A stretch of 63,845 nt of DNA, filler included, from Rhizaria sp. SCN 62-66 (taxonomy: Eukaryota), in NCBI GenBank assembly GCA_001724265.1. It is 3 parts of 3 records of this genome, joined end to end, with 100 filler letters (N's around TTAATTAATTAA, not from the genome) between each part and the next. Parts side by side here need not be neighbours in the genome. Positions count along the whole stretch, not along the records: positions 1 to 31,061 come from MEDY01000459.1; positions 31,162 to 51,296 come from MEDY01000460.1; 1 more part is not named here. One strand, written 5' to 3'. Position numbers and translations under genes: made by a program. The notes under the pieces were generated by a model that made no database searches, had not been told where the DNA came from, and saw nothing but the letters and a program-made list of their open reading frames with translations. Positions 11,404 through 51,396 of the stretch are shown here, piece after piece; position 1 is the stretch's first letter; each line of letters begins with the position of its first letter.

Positions 11404-11884
11404 GGGGTGTGACGAGCTGTGGGAGTGATTGGTGGGATGGTGACACACCACAACAAAGCATAGGGCAACATCAGAACATTATGTGAGCTAAAATTGCATT
11501 GCGGCGTAGTGATAAAAGGTGAAAGTATATATCTGTCCATGTACATTTCTGTTGTGGAACTGCAGAAAGATTGATGATGAGACCCGTGTGAGATTGGTGT
11601 GGATAGAGTGAGGTCTATCAGATAGCTAATCTCGAACGAGATCCCTTTGATCCACCACAAACACATTCCTGGAACGATTAAGCGGTTGTACTGACATGAA
11701 GCTAATGCAAATGTGTGATTTATTCATTTTAATCAAATCAAGATTCAATATTATATCTAAATAAACTCGTTATTATTCCATCGTAACACGGCGAGCACCA
11801 AATCTACAAACACTTAAGCGTTCTCCAAGCCATACAGACTGCATTATAACATGAACAGTCTGTCGCTCTGTGACAGTACAACAT

Positions 11885-14411
11885 TTACGGGTGTTGTTGC
11901 TGTTGCTTGTTGCGGTTCGCCGCTGCCTTGCCGAGTGTCATCAGCGCGTCCTTCTCCGCGTCTGCGACCTGGAGTGCATTGCGCTCGATGATGGCTTCGG
12001 TGGAGCTCTTGGGGACCACGCGCACGCGCACGCGGCCCGAATTCTGCCGCGACAGCGCCGCCCCAGGCCCCGCAGACTGCTGCTACTGATGCTGTTGATG
12101 CTGATGCTGCTGTACACTGGGTTGCTGCTTCAGCGGCGGGGCGACGACGGTGGGTGGGGGCCGGGCCGGAACCATCCTGTCGTCAGAGCAGGCGTTGTTT
12201 TCGTTCGCCTCGTCTTCCTCGTCGTCGCCATTGTTCTCGTCGTTATCGTCGTCGCCGTTGCGCAGACTGCTGCTGCTGTTGCTGCCGTGGCCGCTGCTTT
12301 CAACGACCGGCGACGGCAGCCCCGGGAGCCCCGCGGCCCCACCCGTCTCCGGCGTCAGCGGCGGCGGCGACGGCTGCAGCCCCCATCGGGTCGCGACGAG
12401 CCCCACCGCGCCCATCTGGCCTGCGACCGCGGCGGCGACGACCTCGGTGCGTTCGGCGTCGCGCGCCTCTGCGGCCTCGCGCGCGTCGGCGGCCGCGGCG
12501 GCCAGCACCGCGGCCGAGCGCGCGACTGTGAGCCGCCGCCCGCTGCCCATGACGGCGACGGAGCCGGAGCCGGAGCCACCGTGGCCGGGGCTGGTAACGG
12601 CCTCGGTGATGCATAGAGGGCTGCCGCTGAGGATAACCGCCTCGCCGCCGCCGCCGAGGGACGCGGGGGCGGCAGCGGTGTTGGCCGCGGGCAGCGCGAC
12701 CAGGCTGAGGGGGCTGCCGGCCGCGGCGAGTGTGTTCAGAGCGAGGGGACTGCTCAGACCGTAGCCAGCGCTGTTGACAACACTCGCAACGTTGCCGCCA
12801 GCGCCAACAGTGCCGGCCCCAACAGCGGTCGCGTTCGCGCGCTTTTCGTTGTCGTTGTTGCTGTTGTAATCGCAGTTAAGCATGATGTGCTAATTCCGGC
12901 GCGCGCGCTTGGCCCGTGCGTTGTCCCAGGCCGCCTTGGCCGCGGCGGCGGCGCGCGCGTTCTCCTCCTGCTCCAACAGCTGCATGTTGGTGTTGAACGC
13001 CTCCATGACAAAGCCCATAAAGACGGGCATGAAGATGAGGTAGATGAGCGAGCGGAACGCTGTGATGAAGGCCTCGCCGACCCACCCGCGCACCACGGTC
13101 GCGGGCCCAATGAGCATCGTCCACCAGTTGGCCATAGCGATGATCGACCCGGTCAGAATGGCCTGCGGCAAGGACTCAAAGGACATGACGCCGCGATGCG
13201 GCAGCCACTCGCCGCAGCAGCGCGCGTCGTCGAGCGCGGCCACGCGCGTGGGGTCGAGCTGTGGCCCGCCCAGCAAGTCAACTGCGATGAGCGCGAAGGC
13301 GAAGATCAAGAACAGGAAAACCAGCGCGACGCCGGCGAGCGCGGGAAAGACGCGGCCCACGGTCTTGAAGAAGCGCGTGGCGCCCGTGGTCAGCGACAGC
13401 ATGCGCAGCACGCGGACTGAACGCGCGGCCAGGATGAGGTGCATCTGCGACAGCAGCGAGGGCGCAGCGTGCGCCAGAACGCCGCCGGTGACCGAGACGA
13501 ACGTGACGATGAAGTCGATGCGGTTCATGCCGCGCGCCCAGAAGCGCTTGAGCCCGAGCGCCCAGAGCTTCACGGCAACTTCAACAAGGAAGAGCCCACG
13601 CAGGGCTAGCGACACGGCGCCCCAGGGCGTGCGCTCGTAGGCGAAGGGATCAAACGGCGGCAGACCTGCGGCGACGCGGGCGCGCGTGAACATCGCGTAG
13701 TCGTACAGCTGCGCACACAACAAAAGCAGGAACGGAAACAGCACCACGTCCGACAGGCGCACGCTCGTTGCCGCGTCAGTGACGGCCGCAGCGGCGACCG
13801 CGGCGGCCTGGGCGTCGGCGCTGAGCGAGGACGACACGTCGAGCCCGTCCAGCAGTGCGCCGGCGCGGCTGGCGCGCGCGCGGCAGCGGCAGCGCAGGAG
13901 GTCGCTGGGTTGCACGCGCAGCTGCAGCCAGCGGCGCACGGCGCGGCGTGTGCGCGCGCGGCCGCGAGGGCCGCCGCAGCAGGTGCCGCAGCAAGTGCGC
14001 GACTGCTGCCGCTGACGACGACTCGCGGTGCCGTCCCTGTCGGGGTTCACGGCGCCGCTATCGTTGTTGGCGTTCAGTGGCTGCGTGAGCGGGTTTTCGC
14101 CGTTTGCGCCGCCGCCAGCGGCGCCGGGAACGGGTGACATCGGAGAGGCGTACATGAGGGACGCGAGTCCGCTGCCGCCGCCGCCGCTTGTCATGACGGC
14201 GAGCTCGTACGTCGCGGCAGCGGCGGCCGCGGCGTCGGCGTCGTCAGCGTCGTTGTCAGCAAGCACACGCTCCTCGGCGTCCACCCACGACACGCTGGAG
14301 TCAACGCCGCCGCCGTCGCCCTGATCACCGCCGCGGCGGCGACCGTCGCCGGCGCCGCCGTCCTCGGGATCGAGGTCGTGGCCTGCGCCGTCGTAGTCGC
14401 CGTCAAAGCCA

Positions 14412-14442
<31 letters not shown>

Positions 14443-16732
14443 TGTTGTCGCCGTTGCCGCCGCCGTTGCTGGTATCGGACTCTGTGATCACTTCGACCGT
14501 GGCCTCGGAGCAGAGGCGGCAGACGAGCTTGAACGTGGTCAGCGACACCCCCACCGCCGCGAACGGCGCCAAGCGGTCCGACAACACAAACGCACCAGTG
14601 CCAGTCGCAGTCGTAGCTGCAGTCGCGTTTGAATGCACGCCACTACTGACAGAGCTCTTTGCGTTGCCACTGGCATTTGCAAAGCCGGTGAGCGAGGCAG
14701 TGTTCCTCGCAGCGTCACTGTTTGCACCCGCATTTGGATTTACGGTCGCGTTGCGGGAGCGCTGCGCCGCCGCCGAGATGTCCCGGTCGAGCTTGGCGTC
14801 GACATCGCGCAGCAGCGCCAGCGCCGCCGCAGAGGTGAGGGCGGGCGCCAGCACATTGAGCACGCGCAGCACCACGGGCAGCGACACAAATGGCTCAGAG
14901 TCACTCCCGTTGCCGCTCGCAGCAGCAGCCGTGGCAGTGGCTGTGTTAGAGTTGGTGAGCAAGCGGTGCGAGAGCTTGCCGAGCAACGCATGCGTCAGTG
15001 CGAGCCCGTCACGGCGAATGAGCACGCGCCCCTCTGCGTCGGCCTTGACCGAGGCGCGGTAGTTGCGGTACGCCAGCCCCGTCATGACTGAGACGAAGAA
15101 GACGTTGAAGAGGAAGGCGAACGCGGCGAGGTAGGAGGGCGCCCACATGACGCCCGCGCCGCCGCCGGAGGATGCCTCGGGCGTGGCGTAGGGGGACACG
15201 ACCTGCAACAAGCGGGTGGGCGACACGTGCGCCATGAACATGTAGTACAGCGCGTCGGGCAGCGAGTCGAATGCGTTGTGGAAGAGCGGCGACGGCGCGG
15301 GCGTCTTGGGCGAATACGAGGCAAACACGAGGAAGCCGAAGAAGGCAAAGAAGCAGAGCACGAATGCGTTGATGAGCAGGCGGTGCGCGATCGCGGCCAT
15401 GGCGCGGCCGAACGCCGTCAGCACGGACCGCAGCCTGCGCATGCGCGAGATGAGCAGCAGAAGCCGCAGCGGGCGGGACAAGCGGACGTAGCGGCCTGCG
15501 CCCCCGTCGTCGTCCGCGGCGCGGGTGGGTGGGGCCGTGGTGCGCGCGGTGGCGAGGGTGACCGTGAGCATGACCAGGTCCGCCAGTAGCAGCAGCACGC
15601 AGAGCGCGCGGCAGATCGCCCAGGGCCGCAGCGGCAGCACCCACGGCGACACGTCGGGCTCGGCGGTCATCGCGGCTGCAGCAGCGCTGTCGTTTGCAGG
15701 GGCGAACTTGCCGTCGCGCCTTGTGGCCGCGGCTGCGGCGTAACCGGCGCGCGTACGGGCCCATACGCGCTGCTCCTCCGCGCGCCGCAGCGAGGCCGCG
15801 CCGTGTGAGTGCTCGAAGCGCGCGAGCGCGCGGGCCCACGCGGGCGCGCGCGCGCACGGCAGCGGCAGCAGCGCGGGCGGGGAGGGGAACTCGAGGGCGT
15901 GGCGGAAGCGTGCGCGCAGACTGAAGTCGGGCACAAAGGACAGCTGAGACGCGGCGGACGCGGCTGCAGCGTCGGCAGACGTAGATGGGTCACTGGTGCT
16001 GCTGTTGTTGTTGTTCGCAGTTGTGATAAGTGACAGCGAGGCGAGAGAGCTGCCATTACTCGTCGCATCGTTTGAACTGGTGGAAAGGTTAGCAGCTGTG
16101 TTGCTGTCAGAGCTGCTGCTGTGCGGGTGCGTGGGGTAAAGCGCCTTGGAAGCACGCGCGAGCGCCGGCGAGGGCCGCTGGAACAGGCAGCGCGGCCCCG
16201 TTTGCACCTTAAAGGCCAACACCAAGTCCAAGATGTAGACGGTGATGAAGAGGTACTCGAATGCAACAAACAGCCAAGGCGCCGGGCCATACAGCGCGCC
16301 GTCGTCGCCCGCGGACGCGAAGGGGAACTCGAGGAACGCGAGCGCGATGTGCGCGATGCAGACGGCGGCGACGAAGTGCTTCCAGCGGCTCATGTGGAAG
16401 AGGCGGTAGAGCTTGACCTGGTGCGGCGACACTGCTTCGGGACACAGAGCCAGCAGAGGGTCAACACGGCGCGAGTGCAGGGCGTCGTTCAGAACGATGC
16501 ATGCAATGTCGAAGTACGCGGGCGCGTGTTCGGCGTCGCTTGAATCTGACGGCTTGGTGTTAGGAGCAGTAGCAGCCGCAGCAGCAGCGCTGCCTGTGTT
16601 CAGGCCGAAGCCGCTGTTGGAGGGGGGTCTACGGACATTCTTCGTCTGCGTTGGGCTCGCGGGGACGTCGTCCATGCGAACATATGGAGTCTCTTTCGAC
16701 AGAGACAGTGGGGAGCTCTCCGAGCTGCTCAT
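11885..16732 (-). CDS. Two-pore channel (2x6TM voltage-gated ion channel family), ~1615 aa if two in-frame TAG are read as sense
   Basis: Two Ion_trans repeats with S4 segments RLSRPLRLLLLISRMRRLR and AARSVRVLRML, plus pore helices after FDSLPDAL and SFESLPQAI. The frame continues through TAG at 12892-12890 and 12085-12083 to TAA at 11887-11885. Confidence 0.82.
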
Positions 16733-18491
16733 GACAGTCAGGATCAAGAGGCAGGAGAAAGCAGCTGCTTTCGGAACTGGAGCCACTGCGCGCGCAGCAC
16801 ACTAAAACTGAAAAGCGAGAAGAGCTACAGTAAAAATAGCATTTGCAGCACGGTTAGATAAGATGTTATTAGTTACAAAATAATGGTCATCATTTGCATT
16901 GACGATTGAATAATGGCTGTGTGTGCAGTTTTTTTGTGTCGCATTTGGTCGAGCCTGGTGAGGGGCGAAGAGGCGCTTGTTGACTGCCACTTGAACATCG
17001 GACACCTCGTTGATGCCAAGATACAATTGGCCGTTTCAGATTAAAACAAGTTACGAATGAAATTGTGATGTTCGACAATGTGTATACGAAAATATATACC
17101 TTCACCATTGAGAACTGACAGCTGCAACGCCGCCGCTCTCAGCCATATGTTAATAAAAATCATGCACATGAGTTCTGACAAGAATCATTGGCAACGAGCA
17201 CTTGTCGTGCGACGTCTTCAGCGTTTTTTTAGCACGGAGAAGTCGTCCTGGAGCATCTCTATGAGTACGAGTTGCTTTCGAATGCTGTCACATGTGTACT
17301 GACGCCGCAACTTGCGAGCGCGGAAGACCACAGAGCAAACTCAAACAGAACTGCAAGCCAATTTGTGATGTAGATTGCCCTGTCTGTCTCACAACCGACA
17401 ATATTGACAGTTTATAATTGCTACATGTTGTCCCTTACGGCACTTTGCATACACTCCCACAATCTGGATGATATAGAAGGCTTACTCAGTGGACCAGCAA
17501 GCAAGGGCTGCGAGGACGAAAAGGACAAGAGTCGGCGCGAAGAAACAGCTCCTAAGGGAGTCCCAAGCGCTTTGTCGCCATCGTCATCGGACTGGAGACG
17601 CTGCGTGCAATCGTCGAAGCGTTTGTGAACATCCCTGCGCGAGATCTTGACTGACAGAATACGAGCCACACATCTCGTGTGGGAGCGATGATGCACTTCG
17701 GTCAAAGCCAAGAAGTGATCGTGAAAGGAAGAAGCATGATTGTTTGGGATTGTGGAGAAGATGTGGCACTTTACACTACTTGGACAACCAACGTAATTAT
17801 GCAAAGATGCGCATCTGGAAACATTAGCTGCTGGAGCAAAGCGAAGACGAGCACCTATGAAAAAAGATGTACGCCTTCGAAGCCTCGTATGCCTCAAATA
17901 GAGCAAATCGCGTTCAAATCAGCGCGACAAGTTACCCTCCGCAGAATATTAGTCCCACGCACATTTTCCGCACGGGAATGCAAGATTACCTTGCTTGTGA
18001 GGATGAAAAGGATTCAGAAGACCCGATGCAGACCTCTGTAACATTCATAACTTGTTTATCACGCCTGGATTATATGTTCCCAACGCGTCTCGTGACTATT
18101 TTCTGTGTATTGTGCGCCAGAAGCTCCCAATGCACCCTGGCGACGTGACGACTTTTGCACTTGACAACACACGCGTTCATCACGTCGACACCAGTCAGCC
18201 TCTAATATAGGTATGTTGCGTCAATACTGTGTGTCTTCCACCTTATTCACGCTGCCTTAACCCGGTTGAGATTTTGTTAATGAAGGATGATGAGCATAGA
18301 CAGCAGCACTCGCTAACAAACCCGCCCACACGCCACCAGACAAGGTCCAAGTCCTTAAACTCCTGAAGACGTGATCGGGAACATATCAGTAGAGACAATG
18401 ATGTCAACTCTTTGTTTGTCACACGTGCACATAGGTGCATGCGTTTTGTTCATCGAGGGATGAGATCGCGCTTCTCTCAGAGGTTGTTTGT

Positions 18492-19754
18492 GGCAAAAAT
18501 ATCCGTGGCTAAAATATCCGTAGTTGACATGGTGGTGGAAATTGATTTTGTAATACAATTGGATTGATACATATATATTTATTGATGAAATCTGTGAAAA
18601 TAAATGAATATGTGAACTATATATTTGATTATCAATTCTCGGCCTTAAAAAAACTCGATTAGCACGTGGAAGTCTTTACTTACTGTTTTCTGCCTGCTTA
18701 GCATTGGCTTTATCAATTGCCGCTGACACCAGCTGCAAGTGCGTGTGAAGCGACAGACTGTACTCGTTGTCGGGCATAACCTCCCGAGTGTCAGAGTTGT
18801 AAGCAATGTAGCCATAGGCGCTGGGCACGTTCACCGGGAGATCTTCAATTGTGATAAACGACGTGCAGACGTAGGAGCCAAACGTGTTGATGCATATTGA
18901 TTGTAAACCATAAAGCGCCGCACAATTAATTGTTGAAAACATCCTCCCCTGCAGCTGCCTTAGCAATAAACTTCTGGCTGTGCCGATAGAAGTTGACAAA
19001 ATGTCCTTTTTGAGCTCCTCGGTGATGAAGCACAGCGCCGCAGCGCCCTCTAATAGAAAAGGCGGGTTTTAAGACTTTTTTTTTACAACCCGCCTTTTCT
19101 ATTACTGCTTATACGGTGGGAGGTACTTCCACTGAATATTATTTTGCTTTATCACCATGGTCACCTCTCGTACGAGGGCCGTCTTGTGAAAAGCAACGTT
19201 GTCCACCCAAGAAGGCTCGTGACGCAAGCCACTTATCTATTAATACAAGCTAAACGCCATCAAATTTGTGTAGATCGCATGCTCATAACGCCGTGACCTT
19301 AGAAGACAGCGTGCAAGGATCACTCACAACAAAGAGAGGCTTGAGTAATCTGCCCTTGCTGGACGTGCTGTCTGTTACTGAGGGCCGTATGCGCTCCCCA
19401 GAGAACAACATGGCAGCCATCTCGCGCGTAAACGAGCTCATAAGCCACTCTAGCGCCCACTGGCTCCCTGCTGCAGAACATGCTTCTGCAGCTGCTCCGT
19501 CGCACCCAACAGTGCCTCTCCCACCTGTGTAGGCAAGGCAGAAAACAGTAAAGAGTATTAATACCACATGGTAATCGGGTTTTTATAGGCCGAGAATTGA
19601 TAATTAAATATATAATTCACATATTCATGTAGTCTAACAAATTTCATCAATAAATATAAACGTATCAATCCAATTGTATGACAAAATCAATTTCCACAGC
19701 AAATTTGTTTGGTCAACTACGGATATTTTAGCTGTGGCTACTTATATTTTTGCC
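18492..19754. mobile_element. Non-autonomous long-TIR element (Mutator/foldback-like), ~1.26 kb
   Basis: Imperfect ~200-bp AT-rich inverted repeats at 18492-18695 and 19536-19754. They include an exact 21-bp match (GCTAAAATATCCGTAGTTGAC, 18508-18528 vs 19712-19732), and both termini begin GGCAAAAATAT. No transposase and no clear TSD. Confidence 0.75.
19051..19104. repeat. 54-bp hairpin (perfect 18-bp inverted repeat)
   Basis: TAATAGAAAAGGCGGGTT (19051-19068) pairs with AACCCGCCTTTTCTATTA (19087-19104). It extends to 22 bp with one mismatch around a T-rich loop. Confidence 0.85.
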
Positions 19755-19886
19755 CGCAGTTAGTATTGATCGATGTCGCAGACTGGAACTGCTGTTTGTT
19801 ACCGCCGACATTTAGCATAAAATACCAAGTCTCATAGGCTCACACTGGGGCAAACACCACCCACGGTCGTTTCGGTGTGGGTATAA

Positions 19887-20095
19887 AAAGGTGGCGTTCT
19901 CCTGTGAACATAGACTTCTGTTTTGTACATGTATATTAATAAACACAGAGAAAACAATTTATGATATCATTTTGTACACATTTACATACATATAATTCGA
20001 ATTATATACTTGGTTCTTATTGTTTTCATAGAAAAGAGAGTCTGTGTTCTGTTCACAGGAAAACGAAGTGTGTATACACAAGAAACGCCACCTTT
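19887..20095. mobile_element. MITE-like inverted-repeat element (~210 bp)
   Basis: AAAGGTGGCGTT (19887-19898) pairs with AACGCCACCTTT (20084-20095), and imperfect pairing continues inward. An 18-bp perfect palindrome ATATAATTCGAATTATAT (19990-20007) lies near the centre. Confidence 0.55.
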
Positions 20096-21118
20096 AAATC
20101 GCGACCGGCAAAAGCTGTCGACTGGAATTTTATGCAGAATGTCGACGGCGACGGTAACACTGTTGAATAGCTGTTCTAGCTATGAGATTGTGTCGACAAC
20201 AAACAAGATGAACAAGAATGAATAAAATAACAGTGTAGCAATAAATCACAAAGAGGTTAGGATTAGAAGAACTCTAACAAGGCGAAGACCTAGCTGACCA
20301 GGTCTCTTTAGATACAGTACACTTCTTCTTCGTTTTACGAGACGAAGCAGCACGTCTTCTTCTTCGCCACCCCTCATCTCTCCTGGATTTGTGAAGTGCC
20401 ACGACGCGAACATGCCATTTATGAGCTCCGTTTTTACATAGCATGCTGTAAACGTCATTTTCTTTCTAATATCATGCGTCTAGCTTGCGCACACGTATTA
20501 TTGGGTTGGTCCTGCATCTGAAAGTTTGCTCTCCCTCGAGTAATCTTCCCTTCTGCTTCAAAAGCTGTTGCCTTACTTCCCTTACGTGCGTCATTGTGAC
20601 GCGAAGAGAGAGCGTTGAAACGATGCTTGAAAACGGCATGATGTGTGTCAGATTCCCTCGATGTGGCTATATTCTGATATCTACAACCTTTATTGTGTAG
20701 CATCATGCGCAAAACCCGCTCACGCACCTCTCCTGACATTGCCTTGCCAAGTATTTCAACGACAACAAACGACAACAGCTGACGACAAGGAAGGTAACCA
20801 CCGCCTACCGCCTGCAATTGTTCTATTTGTATAGTATTGGCACACAGGCACGTGCCCTTATCTCCGCAACTGTTGGAAATACTCCGACTGCGTTTAGCTC
20901 GTCCCTGCTCGCCTCACGCGCTCCATAGCTGTCGAGCTGCTGCATCGCACAGCGTCACAGCTCGGCAATGCCTGCGATTTCCGTTCCCTCATTGTTCTTT
21001 TTGGGGGGTGTTGAAGCCAATGGAGCCTGCACCGCAGCTTCAGGGACAGCAGTAACGCCGGCTCGTTCTTGCTCGCCATCGTCTTGTCGTAATCTCAACT
21101 TCAATAGTAACAGAACAG

Positions 21119-24100
21119 GAACACAAGCGCTCTTGCGCTTCCCGCATCTCTTGCTCTTCTCCTCCTGTTCTTGGCAGCCTTTTGCACCGCTCTGCATACG
21201 TTCTCGATCGGCAGCGACCGCTCCGCCTCGACTGTGCCATTCCGCGTCGTCCTCAGCTCGCTCGACTCCGGTGATACTGCGCTGGAGCTACAGCAGCTCT
21301 CGTCGGACAAGCTCAACGTCCTTTTTATCAAAGGCTCGCTCACTAACTGTCGCATTGAGATGTAGACGCTGCTGGTGACGATCGTTGGCGTCACCACGAG
21401 TGCTGAAGCTGATATCTTGACTGTGCGCTCGTTAGTGACGCTGAACATCGCGACCATCCCGCTTTCGTGCCGCGTCACGCTGCACCCCGCGCTGGCGCCA
21501 ACCACGTTCACGGCGGTTATGAACACGTCTTTCAGTGGAACCGCGCTCGCTACGGACACGGTGACGTTCATGGTCACCGCCCCGCACTTCATGAACACGC
21601 CCTACAACAGTAAGGTATTTTACGAGAACCAGTGGCTTGGCAAGAGCGAGAACTTCATCCTCCCGTTCCGCTACTCCGGCGACATAAAGCTCACCGCATC
21701 CGTGCTCGGCGCCGCTGATTTTGTCTTGACGCTCAGTTCCACAGCCCCGGTCATGTTCAACAGCAGCAACGTGTAGTGCTTTCTCGACTACCGGCCGCTG
21801 CTCAACAACGTTCTCATGCTCAGCTTGTCCAGCATCGCGAGCGGCGGGCTAATGGTGTTCATGAACATCCCCACGAACGCAATCACCGTCCGCATTCCCG
21901 ACGCGTACACCGGCATCCTCACCTGCAAGGCGCCGTGGCGCTCGCTGACCGAGACCGTCGTGGTCGCGAGCACACTCTTCACAATCACCCCGGGACTTAG
22001 GTTCGGCGCGTCCCAGATCTCCGGCCCGTCGTGCACGCTCGACACCGTAGCGTCATCCACCAGCGACGGCTGGCTCGTCACGTCTACCAATGGCGCGCAG
22101 ACGTGGGCCGCCACCGACTACGGGTTGCGAGGCACCGCCGTGGGCAACATTGACCTGGGCATCGTCCGCGGCAACAGCACGGAGACGTACCGCGGCTCCC
22201 CGCGCTCCTTCTGCACCGTCAGCGCGCGGCCCGCCGCCGCCGCGAGCTCCCCCGTTGCCAACGGCGGCGGCGTGGCCGCGGCGCTGGTGCAGCCCGTGGA
22301 TCCGCTGACTATTCTCTCGACTGGGTATTGCCGCATCCCTTTCGCGAGCCTGCGCATCTACGGCGCCAGCGACGTTCTGTCCTCGGGGGTTGTGCTTGTG
22401 GTATCGATGTACGTCGCCGACGCGCCAACGGAGCTGACCACCATCAGCACGCTCGGCTTTGTCAACGGATGGATCTCAAGGACAATTACGATCTCACAGG
22501 TAGGTGTACTCACGAGTGCGCGATGAAAGTGGCGTTTTGTTTTTAGCTCTGTGTGCCGCTATATAATGCTTTTATGACAGTATTTTTATGCTTGATCATA
22601 TATATTCTATGTCGATATATTTTTTCTTAATCACATCTCACGCTATCGTTCTCGTTTACACGATTTCATGTTTTTTAGGCGTTCACGATGACAGCCATGA
22701 ATTTCTCCCCGACCGTGGCGTCCATCTCGTCCTTTACGCCCCGCGGCATGTACCAGCCGCACCGCGCCTCGTCGCCCTTTCTTCTGTCGCAGAACATCAA
22801 CTTCACGGTCCCGCTGCAGGACTGGTACTCGCTGCGCCCCCAGCTGCCGCTGTCCGTCTCGTCCGCGCGCCCGGCCCCGCGCCCGCGCCCGCGCTACCTG
22901 CAGGCTACGGCTGCCGCCGCCGCGGCGGGGCCCCGTCAGTCGGCCACGTCATCCTCGCTCTCGGGCCAGTACTCGTTCTTCTTCGGCGGCATCGCGCTGC
23001 AAACGTACCCGCTCGCGTCGCCCACCGCGGACCCTTTTGTGGAGCCCGCGCTGCTGTCGGACCTGTGGATGGTCGACGTGCTGGCCAACACCACGACGTT
23101 GCTGCACGGCGACCCCGCGCTGGTGAGGCTGCCCGCCGGGCTCGGTGCCACGGGCTCGCCGACCGTGGGCGTGTACGCATCGACGCTGCGGCCCGCCGCG
23201 CGGCACTCGGCCTCGCTGGCGTACGACCCCACGACGCGCATCCTGTGGCTCTTCGGCGGCGCATACTACCCCATAATCGCCGGCAACGCCGATAAACAGG
23301 CGTTCTTTGATGACATGTGGTCGTTCAGCCTTGACCGCCGGCAGTGGGCGTGGTGGTCTGGATCCACGGAAGCCAAGACCAGGCCCGTCACGAACTTCAC
23401 TATCACGACCAACCCCTCACCCACGGCTGGCGCGGCCATCGCGGCGTACGGGGGACAAATTGTGATTTATGGCGGTACGTTATAGGAATCGCAAACCAGA
23501 ACAACTACAACGATAATATTGTCCTTCGACAAACTTAGGTCTGACTACTCTCGCTGCGACTTTTTTGTGATGTCCTATTTCGCATTTCTTGACTAACTAT
23601 CGTCGGTTTGAACTGGATCAATATCTCTCACAAACTCCCTTCATTGTAGGCTACGCACTCGCGTCAACTGCCATCACCACCGGATACAACCCCGTCGTTG
23701 AGACGGACTTTGTCTTTTTGGCCGTGGTTGCCGGCGCCACCGTTATGTCGTGGCAGCGCCTGGCGGGCGCTATCTCGGTTATCGACAACACGATTCCGTC
23801 CCGCGGCGGCCCCGATGTGCCGGCCGCCCGCGCCTACGCATCGCTGGTCTGGGAGACGCACAACAACGCGGGGGCCGGCTCATCTCTGCTCATGTACGGC
23901 GGCTCGGTCAACGCGCTGCCGCTCACTCTGCCGCCGGGGACTGTGACCGTGAACACGACTCTGCGAACGGCGCCGGGGACGGAGAACGACTCGGGCGTTC
24001 TGGCGGGGCTCTGGCAGTTCTCACTCACCTTGACCCGGTGGACGCGGCTCGACGCCGCGTTCCCCGCCCCGACCGCGGGCGACCGTGGGCAGCCGCGGCT

Positions 24101-27100
24101 CACGCCCGCAGCTGAGTCGGGCATACCGCACCCGGGCGGCCGCGTGTTCCACGCCATGAACATCGCGGCCAACGGCGATGTGTACCTCTACGGCGGCCGC
24201 GGACACGCCGTCGGCGCGTACGTGCGCCCCATCGTCCAGCCGGCCCTGCTCTTAAGCGAGCTCCCGGCCCCCGCGCCGTTCACGCTGCCGCTTAAGGGCC
24301 GGTTCAGCACCACAGTAAACGAAAACGACGCAGTGTCGCTGCACGCGTTTCTTTACACCAAGGCGGAGATGGAGGCCGCGGGCCTGCCCGCCGACGTGCC
24401 GCTGTCATCGCTCGACGTCATGGTGAAGCTCAGCACCGACTCCGTCTTCGCTGAAACGGGCGTCTGGGACTCCACCAGTCGGTTCCGCGTCCGCTCGCTG
24501 CTCACGTCGACGTCGTTGACTGACTTTACAGACACCACGGCGAGCTTTCTCGACACGTACGAGTCGTCTCTGCTCGCGCAGCCCGTTGTCTCGATCGACC
24601 CCACGGCGTGGGCCCCGGGCACTTTCATGGCGATCAACTCCCCGTACATGAAGGACTCGTTCCCCGACTCGGCGACCGTCACGCAGGCGCTCTCGAGCTC
24701 CAACTACATCATCCTGATCTTCGCCGTCGAGTACAAGCTCTCCGGCACCGGCAACACGTCACAGCTTGCCCGCTTTGGGCTCGAGACGACGGATACTATC
24801 TTCGAGCGCGCGCTCTCGTTGCTCAAAAACGCCGGGTCCGCGACCGGACTCGCGACGCGCAACTACGTGCGCTCCACCATGCGGCCCGTGCTGCTGTTCC
24901 GCTCCCCGCTGCCCGCGCATCCGCTGACGCAGCCGCCCGTGTCGCTGTCGCCTTTTGTCGCGCCGCAGCTCGACGACCTGTGGCAGTTCTCCCGCACCAC
25001 GAGCACGTGGACGCTGCTGCGCGGCTTCGTGGCGCCCAACTCGCGCACGAGCTCCACAAGTGACCGCATAGTCCTGCCCGGGACGGCGACGACGTTCTGG
25101 CCCGGCGCGCGGCTGGGCGCGTCGCTGTCAATCCCCTCAACGAGCACGCTGAGCGCGCCCGTGACCAGCGACGCGTCGCTCTTCCTCCGCGGCGGCTGGA
25201 CCGCGGGCTCGACCCCCACGGCGGAGAGGCTGTTTTTCGTCAGCCCGGCCGTGGAGCGGCACATGGAGGACTGCGAGCAGCTCACGGTGCACGACGACCT
25301 CTGGACGGTGGACATCACGGCGGGCACGTGCATCGACAGCACGGCGCCTGGGCAGGACATACTCCCGTGCCACCTGCCCACGGACAACAACAACACCGCG
25401 CGCCTCACGCCGTGGCTGCCCCAGAGCCACATCGTCTACGGCGAGCATGCCCGTGAGTCCCTGTCGCTGGCTAGCGGCAATACCTGCCCTTCGGGGTTTG
25501 CCGCCACTTACTGTAACAGCATGGGCAGCTGCGTCCCCGGTGGCGGTTCCGCGTTTTGCCACTGCAACGACTACACGCAGGGGCCCTCGTGCGCCACTGC
25601 CAGCACGACCGAGATCAAGGCCAAGCTCCAGCTCAGCTTCGGCTCCGCGCTGCTGCCGGCCGCCGCGACCCCGACCGTGCTGCCCTTCGCCGCCGTCGCG
25701 CACCGGCCCGGCACCGGCGAGGTCTACAGCTTTGGCGGCGTCGTCGTCGACGCGGCCGGCAAGGCCTCCGCCAGCGCGGCCTTCACGCGCGTCGACTTGG
25801 TTGCCAACACGGTGATCGAGGTCCCGCGCACGACGGGCTTCGCCGTGTCGCACGACTACTCGCAGGCGCTAATCCCCACTTTCGACATCGGGTTGCCGTA
25901 CGCTGGGACGACGGCGCCGCCGCCGACGGTCGAGTCGCACGCGTGGTTTTCGCCCGACGGGCTGTTTATGTATCTCTACGCCGAGAGCTTCGTGGCGCCG
26001 CCCGGTCTGTGGGTCTACACAGTCCCGTCAAAGGTACGCATTTTGTGCAAAGATTCCTCTATTTTCTCACCTCGATTTAGCTTATTTAATTATGATGTCG
26101 ATTTTCGTCGAATAGTTCCCTTTTTTCAGCTTCTTACAACAACAAAAAATCAAACGTGTGTTTTGTATCATATCTTTCTCTTTCCACGTGTATAACGACA
26201 GTCTTGGACGACGGCGGGGTATAATCATATGAGCCACAACGCGTCGTACCCGTGGGGCACGGGGTCGTACAACTACAACGCGGGCGCCAACGGTGTCCCC
26301 GGTGTGAACTACCACCCCGGCGCGCGCCAGGGCTTTGCGAGGGCGTCGTACTCGTCGGAGGCCTCTGCCGACAACGCCTCGATGTTCTGCATGTACTCGG
26401 GAACGCAGACATATGAGTCGGGTAACCACGGAGACACGTACAACACGGATCTGTGGTGCCTCTTTACCAAGACTAACTCCATGAGTGGAGTCCATGATGC
26501 GCAGTACGTTGCGGCATTTACTCAAAAGTTGAAATGTTCATAACTGTCTTCTTGCACACGTCACCGCTCTCACTTTTCCTCATCCCCATTTTTGCTCACG
26601 TGTTTCTTCCCTTCATTGTTTTTGTTTGAACCTTGTTGTTCTTGTAGGTGGGCGCGCATGGCGGGTAGCTCCAACCAGACTCCCATCGATTACTTGCCCG
26701 TCGCCAGCGAGTCTGGCACGTTCGCCGCCACCAACAACCCCGGTCCACGCCTCGGTGCCAGCATGACGTTTTCCCGTGACGGTCGCTACCTCTATCTCTT
26801 CGGTGGATCTCTCCTTGGCCGCCCTAAGGTCAATGGTGGCAAGATCCCGACCCCGGCTCTTATGGCCGACCTCTGGGTGTTTTCCTTTGCGCTGAACCAG
26901 TGGGCGTACCTCTCCGGCCCGCTCACCTGGGCCGTGCAGGGCAGTCCGCACGCGCGCAGCACCGTCGCCACCGTTGGCGCGTTCTCGCGGCTCCAGGCGC
27001 CCGGCGCGCGCGCCTTCGCGAGCATGACGACCGACGCCGAAGGGCTGTTGTACGTCGGCTACGGGCTGCGGCTGCCGCTGACTGCAGGGACGTCCCTAAG

Positions 27101-30100
27101 CGACGGCGTGAGCGCGGATTTGGCCGACGCCTCGTGTCTCGAGGGCACGGTGTTTGCCGTGTATGCTGAGCAGCTGCACAACAGCTCCTGGACGCCGCCG
27201 GCGACGTCGGCCGCGACGGTGGCCACGGCTCCAGCCTCGCACAACGTCGGCAGCGAAATCCCCGCGTGGGCGCTGCTGGTGAACCCGGTCAACATCGCGG
27301 TGCCGCCGACGCTGACGTTCGTGTGGGCCGCGACCACGGACGACGCGCGGCTTGGCGCCGCGTTCCTCATGCTGCCAAGCACCATCGGCACCGCCAACGC
27401 GCTGTACGCGAACAAGGCCGCGGTCCTCCTGCGCTCGGGCGGCCTGACGTACGCCTCCGGGGCTGCGCTCGATGGCGGCTTGACGACCGCGTACCCGTTC
27501 TACCTGCACTCGAAGCTGCGCTCGGACGTCGACCAGTCCGCGCTCGTGGCGCTCACGTCGCCGTGCTCGCAGAACCCCTGCACCAACGGCGGCACGTGCA
27601 GCGTGTGCACGGTCGCGTCGTGTCTGGCGGAGTCTCCGACTTACTTCGTCGGTCTGAGTTCCAAGAACTACAAGTGCCACTGCCCGTCAGGCCGGTACGG
27701 TGAGCACTGCGAGTTCAGCCGCGCGACCTACGCGCCCACGACGGCGCCCGCGGTGCTCTCGCTGGCCTGCGGCACCAACAGCACGCCGCTCGACTCGCTC
27801 AACACCCCCTGCACGTGCGCGGCGGGCGCCACGGGCACACTCTGCTCCCCTATCAAGGCGCGCGTGCACGTCAACGTCACCGACGGCGCCCCGCGGCCCA
27901 GCGCCGCGCCGCGCTTCTACGCCGCGGCGACGACGGTGCGCAGTCTGCCCGCGACGAGCGCTGCCGCGCTGGGGCTGCCCGTGAGCTCGACCGTAACGTT
28001 CGTCGCCGGCGGCACGGACAGCGTGGACACGACGACGATGACGTCGGCCATCACGGCGCACTCGCTCACGGCGCGCACCAGCGTCGCCGTGGTGCTCGAC
28101 GTCGCCGTGAACCCCGGCACGCCCGTGCTGGAGACCAACGTGACCAAGGGCACGGTGGCCTACACGGGGCAGCACATGGGCGCCTCGCTGGTGTTTTTCC
28201 CGCAGGGCAACTGCCTTTTCTTGTTCGGTGGCATTGTCAGCAACGGTGAGAGCGGCCATGTCGTGAACGTACGTAAAAATTTCTCAATCTTATCTGAACA
28301 AGGAAAAATGAATCAATCTTCTTTGTCATCCGCTAATCTTTGCTCGGATTCTCCTCTTGTATTGACATCATATATTTTTCTCTTAGCGCGAGTACTTCGA
28401 GCGTCTGTGGCGCATCCCCGTCGCCGCAGATTCGCTCAAACTTCCCCCGGAGCTTCTGAGCGGCCGCAACACGGACGCGAAGCCCTCCCCGACGCTCTTC
28501 ACCGCCTCGGACCTGGTCGACGTTGGCAGCGTCGGCCACCAGCACCGCCGCGACGCCTCCGTCTACCCCATGGGCTACCCGGGCGCGCGCGCTTTCCACA
28601 ACTCAGTGCTCGTCACGCTCAGCAGCGGCACGGGCGCCGCGGAGCACTGGGTGTACACCTATGGCGGTTTGGTTCCTTCGGCGGCGGGCACGCAGGTGGC
28701 CTACCGCGGCGATCTCTGGCGATACCGCGCCGCGGCCACGGACAACGTCGTTTGGCAGTACGTTGGCTGCGCCACGGGCCTCGACTACTTCCCCAACACT
28801 ATGTACGCACGCAACCTCACCATCGATCTGGCGAGCTACTGCCCCGCGGCGCGCGCGCGCGCCTCGCTGGTGGCGGTGGGCGAGACGCTGCTGCTGAGCG
28901 GCGGCGTCGGCGTCCGCGGCGCGCTCGACGACGTGTGGAGCTTCAACCTCGTCGCCGAGACGTGGACCCTGATCGCGGGCAACAGCCTGAAGCTACCGCT
29001 GGACGCCTCCACCGCGGCGGTGCTGCCCGTGTTCACGGGGGCCATGCTGAGCCGCACGATGGGGTCGCGCTACGACCACAGCTGCGACGTGGCGCCCGGA
29101 GAAACTAAGGTGTACTGCTACGGCGGCATGACGGCGCGCGCCGTGTACGCCGACGTCTTCCGCAACGCCGTGCCCATCACGCTGTCGCGCGCGGCGCACT
29201 TTCCCAGCGTCAAGGACCCGGCCGTCGTGACGTATCCGTTCCGTGACGCCAAGGGCGACGGCGTGACGGCGAGCCGCGTGGGAAGCTTCGTGCCGCGCGC
29301 TCTGCTCGACCAGGCCGGCGTGCTGGTCGGGATGTCGGTGCGCAGCGTCACCTTCTTCCTCACGCGGCCCGTCGACGCGCGCGTGCGGGTCACGGCCAAA
29401 GTCACGGTGCAAAGCGTTGCGGATGATCCGACAGGCAAGCTGACTGACACGATCGTAGGCAGTAACGGGACGAAGACTCTCTCGTACGCTGACTTTGGCA
29501 ACACTGGCACTGAGTTCTCCGTGCCTCTGGACTCGGCTCTCCTGTTCCCGTCAGACAGCTATGGCCTCGTCATTGCGCTCGAGGTCACCGTGCTCAGCGG
29601 CGACGGCGCTGCTGGCTTTGGCAGCGGCGGGCAGGTCGAGGAGTCGCTCGCCTACGGCAGTTTCGTGACAACTGCCACCGCGAACGTCTTCACCCTCTTC
29701 TCAGGCGTCCGGACCAAGAACACTCACTTCACCACTACGGCCGAGGGCGTCGCGGACGTGTACGAGACGTACCTCGTGCCGCAGATGCGCCTGCTGCTCT
29801 CCCCGCCCGCCGGCGGGCTCACACACGGCCACGCCCCGTCGTCGGACCTCTTCGTCATCGAGACGGCCGTGGCCGCGCGCACCATCGCCGCGGTCTTCGC
29901 ACCCCCGCTCAAGGCCGCGCCCTCGGCCGCCGTGCTCACCGCGGCGCTGTCCAGCGCCGTCGTCAACGGCGGATACCGCAGCGACCCCGTCATCGAGGAA
30001 GCCGAACTCGGCTACGGCACCGTCTGGAGCGCCTTACCGGTGCCCGACACTGACCCTTCGACGCCGGCGCATTTCGGCACCCGCGCCGTCACGCTCCCCG

Positions 30101-31061
30101 CGCTCGCGTCGCACACCTTCGCGCTCATCGAGGACCCGGGCGCCGTGTACGCCATGCAGGGCATCCCCGCCTTTACGCTCTACGGCGGTCGGTGGGCGCT
30201 CGAGACGCCGTACGAAACGACCCAGACGTTGGCGGTGGACCAGCTCGCCGGGTCCGCGACCTTTTTGGCCACGCAGAGCGACCAGTCGGTTCCGAGTTCG
30301 AGGTACATTGCTGACATTAACACGGCTCTTTTATATGTTTCTTCAATTTATTGTTTAACTTTACACATTATTTCATTCGTGTATGCTCACTCTTGCTTGA
30401 CACGTGATTATCTATTTTGTATCGACCTGTAGCGCTTACGCCTTGCGTAACGTCTACGTCTTCCACGCAGGCCTCAGCCTGCCCCCATACGTTCCCCTCG
30501 CTGCTCCGAAGCTGCCGTACCCACAGCCAACCGCGCTACGCTTTACCGCGGCCATGAACGAGGTGCGGCTGACCTTCGACATGGCTACGCAGCAGCCGCG
30601 CAGCACGACGTCCGCGTCGACGGCCAACTGCGCCATCGTTTTCCCCCAAACTGCGCTGGGGCCGTTAGGTGACGCGCCGCTCTGCGCGTGGACGTCATCC
30701 ACAGGTATGCACACGATATCACATTTGCATCGAAGAAATGAAACTATGGCGTGAATGAACGTCTTGTTTGTCTCCTATATCGCACATTAATCTTACCCCC
30801 TTACCCTCGAACTTTTTTCGTGTTGATTCTTCCAAATCCACAGTCTTCAGCATGATTCTCGGCGCCTCGTTTACCGCGCGCGTCGGCACCTCTCTGTCGC
30901 TCCTCGGCGGCGTCATTCGCCGGGACACAACAGCGACTGGAGCGATGTACTTGCCCACCAGTACTGTCACCATTCTGGATCCTGATACCACACCCGTGAC
31001 CCCTGTCTCAGTCATCTCAGGGCCCTCTACGATTGGCCCATGTGACGCGCTGACGCTGTGG
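21119..31061 (+). CDS. Giant secreted/surface protein with kelch-type repeats, EGF-like domains and the start of a REJ/PKD-like region (>2900 aa, 3'-truncated by contig end; start codon unresolved, possibly ATG 21020)
   Basis: Exons ~21119-22499, 22679-23474, 23650-26033, 26202-26503, 26648-28268, 28387-30302, 30433-30704 and 30844->31061 all splice in phase. It has a hydrophobic leader (LALLLLFLAAFC), repeated PGAR/PAAR...L(W/Y)LFGG...DLW kelch units, EGF motifs (CSQNPCTNGGTC...CHCPSGRYGEHCE) and a terminal VISGPSTIGPCDALTL typical of REJ-domain starts. Two in-frame TAG occur in the first large exon (21363, 21774). Confidence 0.78.
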
Positions 31062-31161
31062 NNNNNNNNNNNNNNNNNNNNNNNNNNNNNNNNNNNNNNN
31101 NNNNNTTAATTAATTAANNNNNNNNNNNNNNNNNNNNNNNNNNNNNNNNNNNNNNNNNNNN
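31062..31161. other. Artificial contig linker
   Basis: 44 N + TTAATTAATTAA (stops in all six frames) + 44 N. Confidence 0.97.
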
Positions 31162-31227
31162 AAATAAACCACGTAGTTTGATAACTTCTACGAAAGTGCG
31201 CCAAAGTCGCAAAAAAAGCGCGAATTC

Positions 31228-31259
31228 GCGTTTTTTAGTTGACGCTACATAGGGGTTAT
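31228..31259 (-). mobile_element. Terminal inverted repeat of a DNA transposon at the left end of contig 2
   Basis: The 32 bp GCGTTTTTTAGTTGACGCTACATAGGGGTTAT is the exact reverse complement of 51202-51233 and lies next to the contig break. Confidence 0.7.
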
Positions 31260-31374
31260 ACACATTCGTTTTGTAACACACATTCAAAGTCTTTGTACCC
31301 TCTAGATAAATATGTTCAATTATTAATGAGAAGTGATAAGTTTTCAAGTTAGCAAGATGCGCAATGCGGTCCAC

Positions 31375-33475
31375 TCACTGAGGCGAGCTCACGTCCCCCT
31401 GCATCGACTGTTGCGGCTGCACCTGTGCTGCATGGTACTGCTGCTCCTGCGCCTGCGCCTGCGTCTGCGGTGTCACATAAGTCTGCTATGTGTACTGCGG
31501 TTGCGAGTACTGAGCGTACTGGTGCGGCTGAGGCTGCTGCGACTCTGACTGCGTCTGCGCGGGTGCGTAGGTCGCCATCTGCGGCTGCGGCTGCACTGAC
31601 TGTTGTTGTGAAGCGGCGGTGTACTGAGGCTGCGCGTACACATACTGTTGCTGCTGCACTGGAGCCGACGTCGTCTGCACCTGCTGCTGCTGCTGCTGCT
31701 GCTGCTGTGGCGCGTACTGTGCAGCCTGTTGTTGCTGCTGTTGTTGTTGTTGCTGTTGTTGTTGGATGTACTGGCTGTAGTAGAGCGCCTGCTGTTGCTG
31801 CTGCTGTTGCTGCTGTTGCTGTTGCAGCGCGCGCAACTGTTCCACGTAGCTGTTCTTCTGTGAGAGAAGCGTCGGCAAGTATGACGCGAGCGCGTCGCGT
31901 TGCCCCTGCGACAGCTGCGCCTGCGCGCGCTTCTCGGCCGAGCCCGCGGGGTCTGTAGCCGCAAGCGCGTCGGCCGCCAGACGCTGCTCCTCCTCCTGCT
32001 TGATCAGCAGCGTGAGCGCATCCTGGTACTCCTTGTACATCTTATCAGTCTCGGCGACCTTCTCCTCCAGCGCGCGCGTGGCGCCGGTGCTCGCAGACGG
32101 AGACGCCGCGGCGGCTGACTGCACTTGCGACTGGGACTGCGTCTGCGTCTGAGGCTGCTGCGCGTAGCTATACTGTTGCTGCTGTTGCTGTTGCGAGGGC
32201 TGCGTTTGGTGCACTGGCTGTGCGGGATGGAGGGCCTGCGAGCCGGGCTGCGACGCTGGCTGCGAGGCCGGCGCCGAGGTCGCATAGAGCCCCGGCGTGG
32301 CGGCCCCGTGCTGCTGCGAAGACGGGAACACGGCGGGCGACACCTGTGACGCGGGATGGCTATGGCTCTGCACGTACGACATCTGCGGCGGCTGCGACTG
32401 CGCGTGGTGGTACTGCTGCTGCGGCTGCTGCTGAGCATGTGTGGTCGACGTGGGCGCACTGTACACTGAGGAAGACGCACTTTGTACCTGCGCCTGAGCG
32501 TGCGCCTGCGCTTGAGCCTGCAGATGGTGTTGGTGCTGCGCAGCGTAGTACTGCTGGTACGCCAGCTGCTGCTGTTGCTGCTGTTGCTGCTGCAGTCGAA
32601 GCTGCGCTTGAGCGTCCATCTGCCCATACCCAGTCGCGACAGCGTCACCGTAACCCGCGTTGTTCACCGCGGGGTACGCAGCGGTGCTCGACGCGGAGTA
32701 CGCTGTGGTGCTCGCTGCGGAGTACGGCGCGGCGTTCGCCGCCGGGTACGCCGCGTAAACCGGCGCGACGGACGCGTATCCGCCCTGGTCTGCGCGGTAC
32801 ATCGTCCCAGGCGCCGCCGCGTAGGTCGCGTAGCCCGCGACGGGCGCGGCAGGCGCGTAACCGGGGTAGCCCTGGTAGCTGACCGCGGGGGAGGAGGTGG
32901 GCATTGGCACGGGCGCAGGCGCGGGCAGTGACGACGCCGAGACAGAGGCTGCGGGGAGCCGCGGCAAACCAGACCCAGCGCCGGCATTAGCATTCGCGCC
33001 AGAGCCAGAGCCAGAGATAGAGTTAGAGTTAGAGCTGGCGTTGGCGCCAGAGGAAGCAGTCGCGGCGGGCGAGGGTGCGATGAGCGAGCGCGCGATTTTA
33101 AGCCGCACGACAACGTCCCCGGCTGCAACAGACGCGCGTACGGCAGCGCGCGTCTCGTCGTTGTGCTGGCGGCACGTACCGCAGCGGTTTCCGCACAGCT
33201 TGCGCGTGGCCGTCGACGGGACGGCGCAGTAGGAGTCGAACAGCTTCGCCAGGAAGGCCGGCGACGGGGAGACGGCGAGCGGGCACTGTGTGAGGCAGTC
33301 CGCGGCCAGCAGCCCGGTGGGCGACGCGGCCCAGGGCGGGAGGCCGGGCGCGTACACCGTGCCGGGGGACTCGCCGGTGATGACCTCGGTGCCAGAGTCC
33401 TCGGTGTCGACGCACACGAAGCCGTTCTGCAGCGTGAGTGTGCACTGGACCGGGCCGTCGTGGCCTGAGGCGGCG

Positions 33476-33507
<32 letters not shown>

Positions 33508-34132
33508 AGCCGCGGAGCCAGGGGTCGCGGCGGCCGCGCCGGGCGTACTGGCCGGCAGCGTCAGCATCATCGTCTGGACTTGCATCTTGCCGGTGCCACG
33601 CGAGGAGATCACACGCGCGCTCGGGCCTGGCGCAGGCGTCGCCGCTGCTGTTGCCGCTGTTACAGCCGGCGTGCCGGCAGCCTGTGCGCTGCCTCCAGTC
33701 ACAGTCGCCGTCGCAGAGGCTGATGCGGAACTGGGCGCAGCAGGCAGAGTAGCGGGCGAGACGCCAGCGCCGGTCGCGTATACGACGCCGTTGCTGCTGC
33801 TGCTGCTGTACTGCTGCAGCGGCTGCAGCGGCGCGTAGCCACCGGCGGGTTGCCCCCAGCCGCCGCCGCCACTGCCGCCGCCGGTTGCCGTCGCCGACTG
33901 GCTAGACCCGGTGGCATATGCGCCGTAGCCGCCGCTGCCCTGAGTCTGCAGCGTCGATGAGAGTGACGACATTGTCGTCGGCGGGGGCGGGGGCGGGAAG
34001 GGCTGGGCGAAGGGCCCCTGTAGCGGCTGCTGCAAGTGCGAAGGCTGCTGCATCTGTGCGTAGAGCGCCTCAACGGCCGGCGATGAGCTGCTGCGAACAG
34101 TCCCATACGTATCGCCTCTCCCGCCGTAGCTA

Positions 34133-34169
<37 letters not shown>

Positions 34170-34618
34170 AGCGGTTGTCGTTGAGCGAAAGCATCACCAC
34201 ACCTGAGCCAGAGCCCGCAGGCACAGAGCCGAGGCTCGCATTCACACTCACACTCAAACTTCCATTGGAGTTGGAGCCTGCGGAGGAATCGGAGGCACGG
34301 GGGCCACCTCGCGCGCCTGCGGCGCCGGGCTGCGGCGGCCGCACGGGTCCGATCACCGCACCGGCGCCATGAGCAAGCGCGTCCTCAGCGCCAGCGCCCG
34401 CGGCGGCACCAGCGGCGGCGGCGTTGGCGGCGGTGGCGGCGGGAGCGGGCCGTTTGCGCTTCGGACCGGGCTTGCCGGCCGCCGCGGCGGCTCCTGTTTG
34501 CGCAGCGGCGGGCGCAGCGGCGGCCGCGGAGGGCGGGTCTAGCGAGGGCATCGCAGGGCCAGCACCAGGACCGTTGACGGCGAGCGCTGCTTTGTCCGCT
34601 GATTTATCTGCTGCTTTG

Positions 34619-34659
<41 letters not shown>

Positions 34660-51296: not shown

Positions 51297-51396
51297 NNNN
51301 NNNNNNNNNNNNNNNNNNNNNNNNNNNNNNNNNNNNNNNNTTAATTAATTAANNNNNNNNNNNNNNNNNNNNNNNNNNNNNNNNNNNNNNNNNNNN
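51297..51396. other. Artificial contig linker
   Basis: 44 N + TTAATTAATTAA + 44 N. Confidence 0.97.

Follow-up and report, generated by a model that had tools for sequence, protein, structure and literature searches.

A possible early-stage reassignment of UAG to glutamine in an uncultured, chytrid-like opisthokont from wastewater reactors

We analyzed a 63,845-nt stretch of DNA, filler included (hereafter, the window), from the assembly GCA_001724265.1, entered as Rhizaria sp. SCN 62-66, in which five in-frame TAG codons lie within three otherwise open genes encoding a two-pore-type cation channel, a large kelch-repeat protein and a Sgf11-domain protein. We think it reasonably probable that UAG is a sense codon in this organism, with UAA and UGA retained as stops. 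The fuller reading, namely an early-stage reassignment of UAG to glutamine, TAG being ~1% of glutamine codons, in an uncultured opisthokont that resembles chytrids and turns up repeatedly in wastewater reactors, is offered tentatively, at slightly below an even chance. An earlier note on this DNA had proposed that UAG is recoded while UAA and UGA remain stops; TAG does lie inside coding frames and TAA and TGA do terminate genes, while the assignment to glutamine comes from context, and five codons are too few to serve as proof.

Results

In-frame TAG codons in three genes

All five TAGs were found where the earlier note had placed them, each of them in frame. With TAG read as sense, the channel gene spans 11885..16732 on the minus strand (~1,615 codons) and matches Pfam Ion_trans in two stretches (E = 1.8e-39). 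Its first TAG (no. 1, 12890..12892, minus strand, context RARRN-TAG-HIMLN) falls ~35 codons past the last transmembrane segment, and its second (no. 2, 12083..12085, minus strand) sits in a glutamine (Gln)/histidine tract, CAT CAG TAG CAG CAG. Two more occur on the plus strand in exon 1 of the kelch gene (21114..22499), which encodes a signal-peptide-like N-terminus and a conserved domain without a Pfam family, and which is followed by an intron at 22500-22678. TAG no. 3 (21363..21365) lies three codons past a conserved NCR(I/V)E motif, and no. 4 (21774..21776) stands immediately 5′ of the Cys in a C-x-LDY motif. The last (no. 5, 31486..31488, minus strand) belongs to the gene of the Sgf11-domain protein, in the part that encodes its Gln-rich tail (TAC ACA TAG CAG ACT). 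The open reading frame (ORF) of that gene, again with TAG as sense, covers 31375..35019 on the minus strand and ends at a TGA at 31375-31377 (Sgf11 Pfam match, E = 4.8e-8).

The window consists of three contigs joined at runs of N (31062-31161 and 51297-51396), and these joints place the TAGs on two contigs, as had been claimed. Each joint contains 12 letters other than N (31106-31117 and 51341-51352) that look like separators rather than biological sequence. The kelch gene had also been labeled as an EGF protein; no EGF domain appeared among the Pfam matches of the five ORF segments of this gene that were scanned. In public gene calls made with genetic code 11, the channel ends at TAG 12890 (P0132, 1,280 amino acids, 100% identical) and kelch exon 1 appears as three separate pieces.

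We compared the regions around TAGs no. 1–4 with other assemblies; the Sgf11 TAG (31486) fell outside this comparison. A contig from metagenome run X1 matched 11800-14400 with 0 differing letters, as did a contig from X3, which belongs to a different study, over 11800-13900. Around the kelch TAGs, X1 and X3 contigs matched 20125-22265 and 20125-22845 with 0 differing letters and 6 gaps of unstated position. A Joint Genome Institute metagenome contig, L001, encodes a 300-amino-acid query at 100% identity, and 8/8 sampled 100-nt words matched in register when it was compared with window positions 9961-13900; TAGs no. 1 and no. 2 are the same in the X1 and X3 contigs and in L001. The four compared TAGs are thus real DNA and not assembly slips. 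Sequencing error, raised earlier as something to check, was in this way answered for four of the five codons, which are identical in assemblies from two independent metagenome studies.

Searches of metagenome contigs for further DNA of this organism or of relatives led back to the same locus (L001), apart from an unrelated GC-rich contig, L002. Two scans of genome contigs gave nothing and one irrelevant actinomycete match, respectively, and a scan of viral contigs gave nothing. Within the kelch gene, an exon carries three extra letters at 28870-28871 in runs X4 and X5, which come from a later study, with the frame kept. X4 contigs differ from the window at 1–2% of letters, and together with this in-frame length variant this indicates a second strain.

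Coding sequence continues past each TAG

Across 18 coding segments (12,629 codons) we counted 5 TAG, 0 TAA and 0 TGA in frame, with no frameshift. Antisense frames with high GC content at third codon positions (GC3) contain roughly 1 TAG per 45–130 codons, and against that rate the signal stands above chance. A codon model was trained on confident ORFs totaling 7,162 codons, and sequences were scored under six models. The segments flanking the TAGs all fitted the sense frame (frame 0) best (6/6, –5.37 to –5.73 bits per codon), while five 3′ untranslated regions used as controls scored –6.7 to –7.4 under all six models. In the channel gene, same-frame coding usage continues for 268 codons past TAG no. 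1, and the 65 codons past TAG no. 2 are best fitted by the sense-frame model.

Base composition gave a similar picture. The GC content of the 90 nt past the codon was 0.57–0.74 for 5/5 TAGs, the lowest value being that of TAG no. 1 (0.57), and fell to 0.28–0.48 past 10/10 clear TAA or TGA ends. At eight less certain gene ends the drop was smaller, and at the end at 39758 the GC content hardly changes (0.73 to 0.64). We also located the GC change-point for 11 gene ends, of which three were uninformative, having introns in range, and eight were usable, with the last 1.3 kb forming one exon. In 8/8 usable genes the change-point lay 3–39 nt from the TAA or TGA, and never at a TAG. For the channel it was 24 nt from the TAA at 11885..11887 (minus strand), which on this basis we take as the true terminator, with a GC content of 0.69 before and 0.36 after; TAGs no. 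1 and no. 2 are 1005 and 198 nt upstream of this TAA. In the Sgf11-domain gene, where the TAG is 111 nt upstream of the TGA, the change-point fell near the TGA (19 nt) and not at the TAG; the 36-codon tail past the TAG has a GC content of 0.64 and the sequence past the TGA 0.36. Overlapping this TGA is a perfect GTGAGT, with a CTAAC motif and, ~90 nt on, a TAG further downstream (31375-31290), so there may be a further 3′ intron past the TGA; the sequence beyond is AT-rich and not coding-like.

At none of the five TAGs did we find a GT..AG island of intron-like composition, judged against the four introns measured in this window. The codon model, the GC profiles and the intron scan therefore agree with the earlier statement that the same frame continues as coding sequence past each TAG, with neither a frameshift nor an AT-rich intron. 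A cruder scan for stops flanked by high GC3 was set aside in favor of the codon model, since it also flagged the antisense of known genes (3 TGA, 3 TAG). We conclude that TAG lies inside coding sequence.

TAA and TGA as terminators

One gene end could be fixed by alignment to a homologue, that of the methylthioribulose-1-phosphate dehydratase gene. A tblastn alignment with P0012 runs as far as ...ERITGP and is followed directly by a TAA codon (2953..2955, plus strand), which therefore stands at the homologue's C-terminus and served as a control. Judged by this alignment, TAA is a real stop. Together with the GC drop at 10/10 clear ends and the 8/8 change-points, this upholds the proposal that UAA and UGA still terminate.

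The tally of stops reported before (16 genes, none ending in TAG) was roughly reproduced, with 5–6 TAA and 10–11 TGA, and is partly circular. The probability of ~1% attached to it follows arithmetically from an assumed 25% share of TAG (0.75^16 ~0.01) and presupposes that neither the channel gene nor the Sgf11-domain gene ends at a TAG.

Homologues of kelch exon 1

A word-index search with kelch exon 1 returned one relative, at 51% identity, and an exhaustive HMMER search returned 10 proteins with E values up to 0.001. Two of these are fragments of the window's own gene, with breaks falling precisely at TAGs: P0005 ends and P0002 begins at TAG 21774. At the column of TAG 21363, P0004, P0006, P0007 and P0009 align without gaps and carry T, P, V and V. 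At that of TAG 21774, P0001, P0003, P0004, P0007 and P0008 align without gaps and carry H, A, Q, S and R, and the Cys directly 3′ is present in 6/6 sequences. In these alignments both kelch TAGs thus stand at positions that are ordinary codons in relatives, within a conserved domain. Homology is continuous across both, and therefore these TAGs are not intronic. Both columns are variable, and so the alignment does not tell the amino acid.

The kelch copy was further examined for marks of a pseudogene. It has no frameshift and no in-frame TAA or TGA, and its conserved columns are kept, yet it has no visible ATG. Downstream of the TAGs, at columns where three homologues agree, the window copy deviates at 10/68, and the homologues themselves deviate at 6/64, 11/69 and 16/74, so there is no sign of long decay. 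Several homologues are represented by pairs of ORFs that share one longest contig (P0001/P0006, 36,383 nt; P0004/P0010, 147,123 nt; P0007/P0011, 77,426 nt), which means that gene calling has divided the exon into two ORFs in those copies as well. Several are also recorded on 6 contigs, the same number as the window's own fragments.

Upstream of this exon, a candidate 62-nt GT..AG intron (21052-21113) would connect exon 1, in frame, to an ATG at 20968. Such an intron is possible but atypical: the four introns measured in the window are all much longer, and the exon upstream of it is not coding-like. The sequence CAA TAG TAA CAG at 21102-21113 led us to consider that TAA might also be sense; this was rejected, as reading through it yields no ATG and TAA ends a conserved gene.

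The likely meaning and the rarity of TAG

Gln-rich flanks, with at least 6 Q in 20 residues, surround 2/5 TAGs: no. 2 has 8 Q in its 20 flanking residues and no. 5 has 6, and the other three have 0. Among Q residues, 31% have such flanks, compared with 8% of H, 7% of Y and at most 3% of every other residue. For Q, the probability of at least two Gln-rich sites in five would be 0.49, against 0.06 for H, 0.04 for Y and less than 0.01 for any other residue, Leu (0.0014) and Ser (0.0034) included. CAG is one transition away from TAG. Taken with the Gln-rich context this favors Gln; a CAG-to-TAG nonsense mutation fits that single transition equally well. On sequence context, glutamine is the most likely meaning of UAG, in keeping with the earlier proposal as far as these statistics go, both alignable columns being variable. 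Usage is very low: 5 TAG were counted against 445 CAG and 90 CAA, so that TAG makes up ~0.9% of Gln codons, and any reassignment would therefore be young or inefficient.

The source organism and the rest of the window

DNA matching the window occurs in bioreactor, wastewater and activated-sludge metagenomes from several studies, from which we take the organism to be uncultured. The DNA is eukaryotic, with GC-rich exons (GC3 ~0.8) and four introns with exact borders, all GT..AG, AT-rich (GC 0.32–0.42) and 145–185 nt long. The last dehydratase intron (2690-2874) starts GTCCGC, and the other three start GTACGT or GTAGGT. Besides the dehydratase, Pfam matches identified Pex12, a YbaK-type editing protein, a Ddi1-type protease, the two-pore-type cation channel, the large kelch-repeat protein, the Sgf11-domain protein, Bcd1, an ankyrin protein and a choline-transporter-like protein. 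The window also contains a fragment of eS1/RPS3A, for which fungal and animal eS1 chains gave the top scores, and it has no Rfam match.

The 12 best organism-named matches of the dehydratase exon, at 63–71% identity, all belong to chytrid genera. We built a quick dehydratase tree from 43 rows, hand-chosen among 120 listed matches plus the window and including no aphelid and no rozellid. The window fell inside a clade of four environmental sequences (Shimodaira–Hasegawa-like approximate likelihood ratio test, SH-aLRT, 99), which stands beside, and not within, the clade of named chytrids and blastoclads; the deeper fork has a support of 86 and was drawn open. On these sequence comparisons the organism is an opisthokont, and not a ciliate, fornicate or rhizarian; it is probably a zoosporic relative of fungi, near chytrids. 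The expectation that it would differ in lineage from the known UAG-recoded groups is thus borne out, with the dehydratase matches and the tree pointing to a place near chytrids and the eS1 scores to fungi and animals.

Between the divergent channel and kelch genes, in a 4-kb AT-rich spacer, is a ~1.25-kb element (18497-19743) with imperfect terminal inverted repeats, consisting of 118-nt arms that are 90% complementary and 32-nt outer arms. Metagenome contig depth in run X1 over 19516-20158 is ~100 times that of adjacent bins, which indicates that the element, or sequence just past it, is multi-copy or shared.

Discussion

The strongest alternative to a sense UAG is that the code is standard. 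The channel and the Sgf11-domain protein would then now end at TAG, through recent nonsense changes (CAG-to-TAG or similar) in dispensable low-complexity tails, the kelch copy would be a decaying paralogue, and near-cognate tRNA-Gln might allow partial readthrough where TAG stands among Gln codons. We regard this as unlikely, although a good deal speaks for it. Three of the five TAGs are in non-conserved tails without a Pfam domain, and TAG 12890, some 35 residues past the last membrane segment, is a plausible natural end. Single-step routes to a stop mostly yield TAG here (CAG 215, GAG 305, AAG 198 and TCG 172 in the training set), so that the restriction to TAG is weak evidence. The rarity of TAG matches that of a deleterious codon. 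The P0006/P0001 and P0004/P0010 pairs show that ORF breaks, whether stops or introns, occur in kelch homologues on long contigs as well. Readthrough of premature stops with insertion of Gln is driven, in yeast with its standard code, by Q-stop-Q contexts in Gln-rich mRNAs (PMC13192750), and site 12083 is such a Q-TAG-Q.

Against this, a standard code requires that nonsense changes became fixed five times independently, in 3 of ~17 genes, and are found in samples of two studies. It also needs ~440 tail codons and ~370 codons of kelch exon 1 (~800 in all) to have remained free of frameshifts and of TAA and TGA, and composition boundaries to have stayed within 24 nt of the old TAA or TGA, while the kelch copy retains conserved columns as well as its homologues do. 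The yeast effect matches site 12083 and loosely 31486: the full context is present at one of five sites (12083, CAG TAG CAG) and half of it at 31486 (ACA TAG CAG), and it is absent at 12890, 21363 and 21774. It is partial readthrough under a standard code, and it leaves three TAGs without neighboring Gln codons, two of them near the start of a large secreted protein. We see the yeast effect as competing in part with a sense UAG at one or two sites, and plausibly also as a starting route for reassignment. Overall, the standard code is much less likely than a UAG that is sense or strongly suppressed.

A second alternative, to which we give little credence, is that UAG is dual, either by position, being sense within genes and a stop near mRNA ends, or through an ambiguous intermediate stage of competition between a suppressor tRNA and eRF1. 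The ratio of 5 TAG to 445 CAG would fit costly or competing decoding, and context-dependent codes exist (PMC5304391), a dual UAG of this kind having been described for some ciliates and trypanosomatids. However, no gene in the window requires a TAG terminator and all eight testable composition boundaries are at TAA or TGA, though ~16 gene ends are too few to weigh against rare TAG ends.

Editing of UAG to UGG by A-to-I deamination is known from the sexual stage of filamentous ascomycetes. Correction of the TAGs in mRNA by such editing, or their removal in unusual GC-rich introns, would suit the restriction to TAG and a fungus-like organism but is very improbable, since Trp gives the worst context fit (0/127 Trp residues in Gln-rich flanks), homologues never carry W at the alignable sites, and removal as introns is opposed by the continuous homology across both kelch TAGs and the lack of intron-like GT..AG islands at any site.

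A sense UAG has its own difficulties, and we consider the following to weigh against it. The sample is five codons in three of ~17 genes, too few to prove it. There is no tRNA gene within the window. No TAG stands in a conserved Gln column, Q being found in 1/5 homologues at one site and 0/4 at the other. The share of TTG among CTG and TTG codons (15%) would by analogy predict ~80 TAG, and 5 were seen. If the channel and Sgf11-domain genes are counted as ending at TAG, TAG terminators amount to 2/16, which is unremarkable. A search for relatives of the channel tail found as its sole match the window's own truncated ORF. In the polyA run X5 the listed contigs map to the channel and kelch genes but cover none of the TAGs; X5 depth bins around 12083 and 12890 are inflated by low-complexity cross-matches and thus uninformative, and parts of the stretch without RNA cover are evidence neither way. 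Kelch exon 1 lacks an ATG over the whole interval from the TAA at 21108 to TAG no. 3, and the CAG at 21111, directly 3′ of that TAA, aligns with the first residue of P0006; with no ATG upstream of its TAGs, this gene copy may be defective, as a standard code would have it. The kelch homologues may moreover be paralogues of one multigene family, perhaps in one organism, where dead copies are common. The small sample, the missing kelch ATG and the rarity of TAG are the reasons why our confidence in a sense UAG is held at the measured level given at the outset.

If UAG is sense, cytoplasmic ribosomes would read it most likely as Gln, while UAA and UGA would keep terminating. Decoding could be by a tRNA with the anticodon CUA or by an efficient near-cognate tRNA-Gln, and recognition of UAG by eRF1 would have been lost or weakened. 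TAG codons would later have derived from CAG by C-to-T changes. Given the ~0.9% use of TAG, the change would be recent or decoding still costly.

The idea that nuclear codes can separate UAG from UAA agrees with the literature (PMC5304391, PMC11687900). UAG encodes Gln, with UAA and UGA as stops, in the fornicate Iotanema spirale, in Protocruzia tuzeti and in two phyllopharyngean ciliate lineages (PMC5304391, PMC11687900). The window shares with these codes an in-frame UAG only, UAA and UGA at gene ends, and Gln as the likely meaning, but those lineages are fornicate or ciliate, whereas the window organism appears to be an opisthokont near chytrids, with a genome that, unlike theirs, is GC-rich and has spliceosomal introns. 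UAG accounts for ~8% of Gln codons in I. spirale by the figure in PMC5304391, compared with ~0.9% here, and the published cases, as there presented, draw on hundreds of UAGs at conserved Gln columns, compared with five codons here, none at a conserved column. UAG is also uncoupled from UAA in the nuclear codes of the rhizarian exLh, where it encodes Leu, and of Scotinosphaera, where it encodes Ser (PMC5304391, PMC11687900); both amino acids fit the Gln-rich TAG contexts of the window poorly.

A further case for comparison is the aphelid Amoeboaphelidium protococcarum, which is likewise zoosporic and related to fungi and has also turned stop codons into Gln codons, UAA and UAG (UAR) both encoding Gln (PMC11687900). 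In the window, by contrast, TAA ends genes, one of them at a C-terminus defined by homology. In the passages of PMC11687900 and PMC5304391 consulted here, A. protococcarum is the sole nuclear stop reassignment named for the fungal neighborhood, and none of the UAG-only nuclear codes known from them is in an opisthokont. Our literature search, with subscription journals outside its coverage, found no nuclear UAG reassignment for chytrid-like fungi or wastewater eukaryotes, nor any UAG-only nuclear code described in a lineage of this kind, in keeping with the earlier suggestion of a possibly undescribed reassignment.

The code-11 calls truncate or split proteins (channel, 1,280 versus ~1,615 amino acids; kelch exon 1, in three), and eukaryotic bins from wastewater would therefore be mis-annotated. 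If the reassignment is true, it would be a known code variant in a new lineage, set apart by its very low use of UAG, and the first UAG-only nuclear code in the supergroup of fungi and animals. It could represent a half-way state toward the UAR-to-Gln code of the aphelid. The sites in Gln tracts connect with the yeast result that Gln-rich contexts weaken termination (PMC13192750), and the very low use of UAG bears on how reassignment starts, whether by codon capture or through an ambiguous intermediate stage. As the organism can be sampled again from bioreactors, the code change would be open to study close to its origin.

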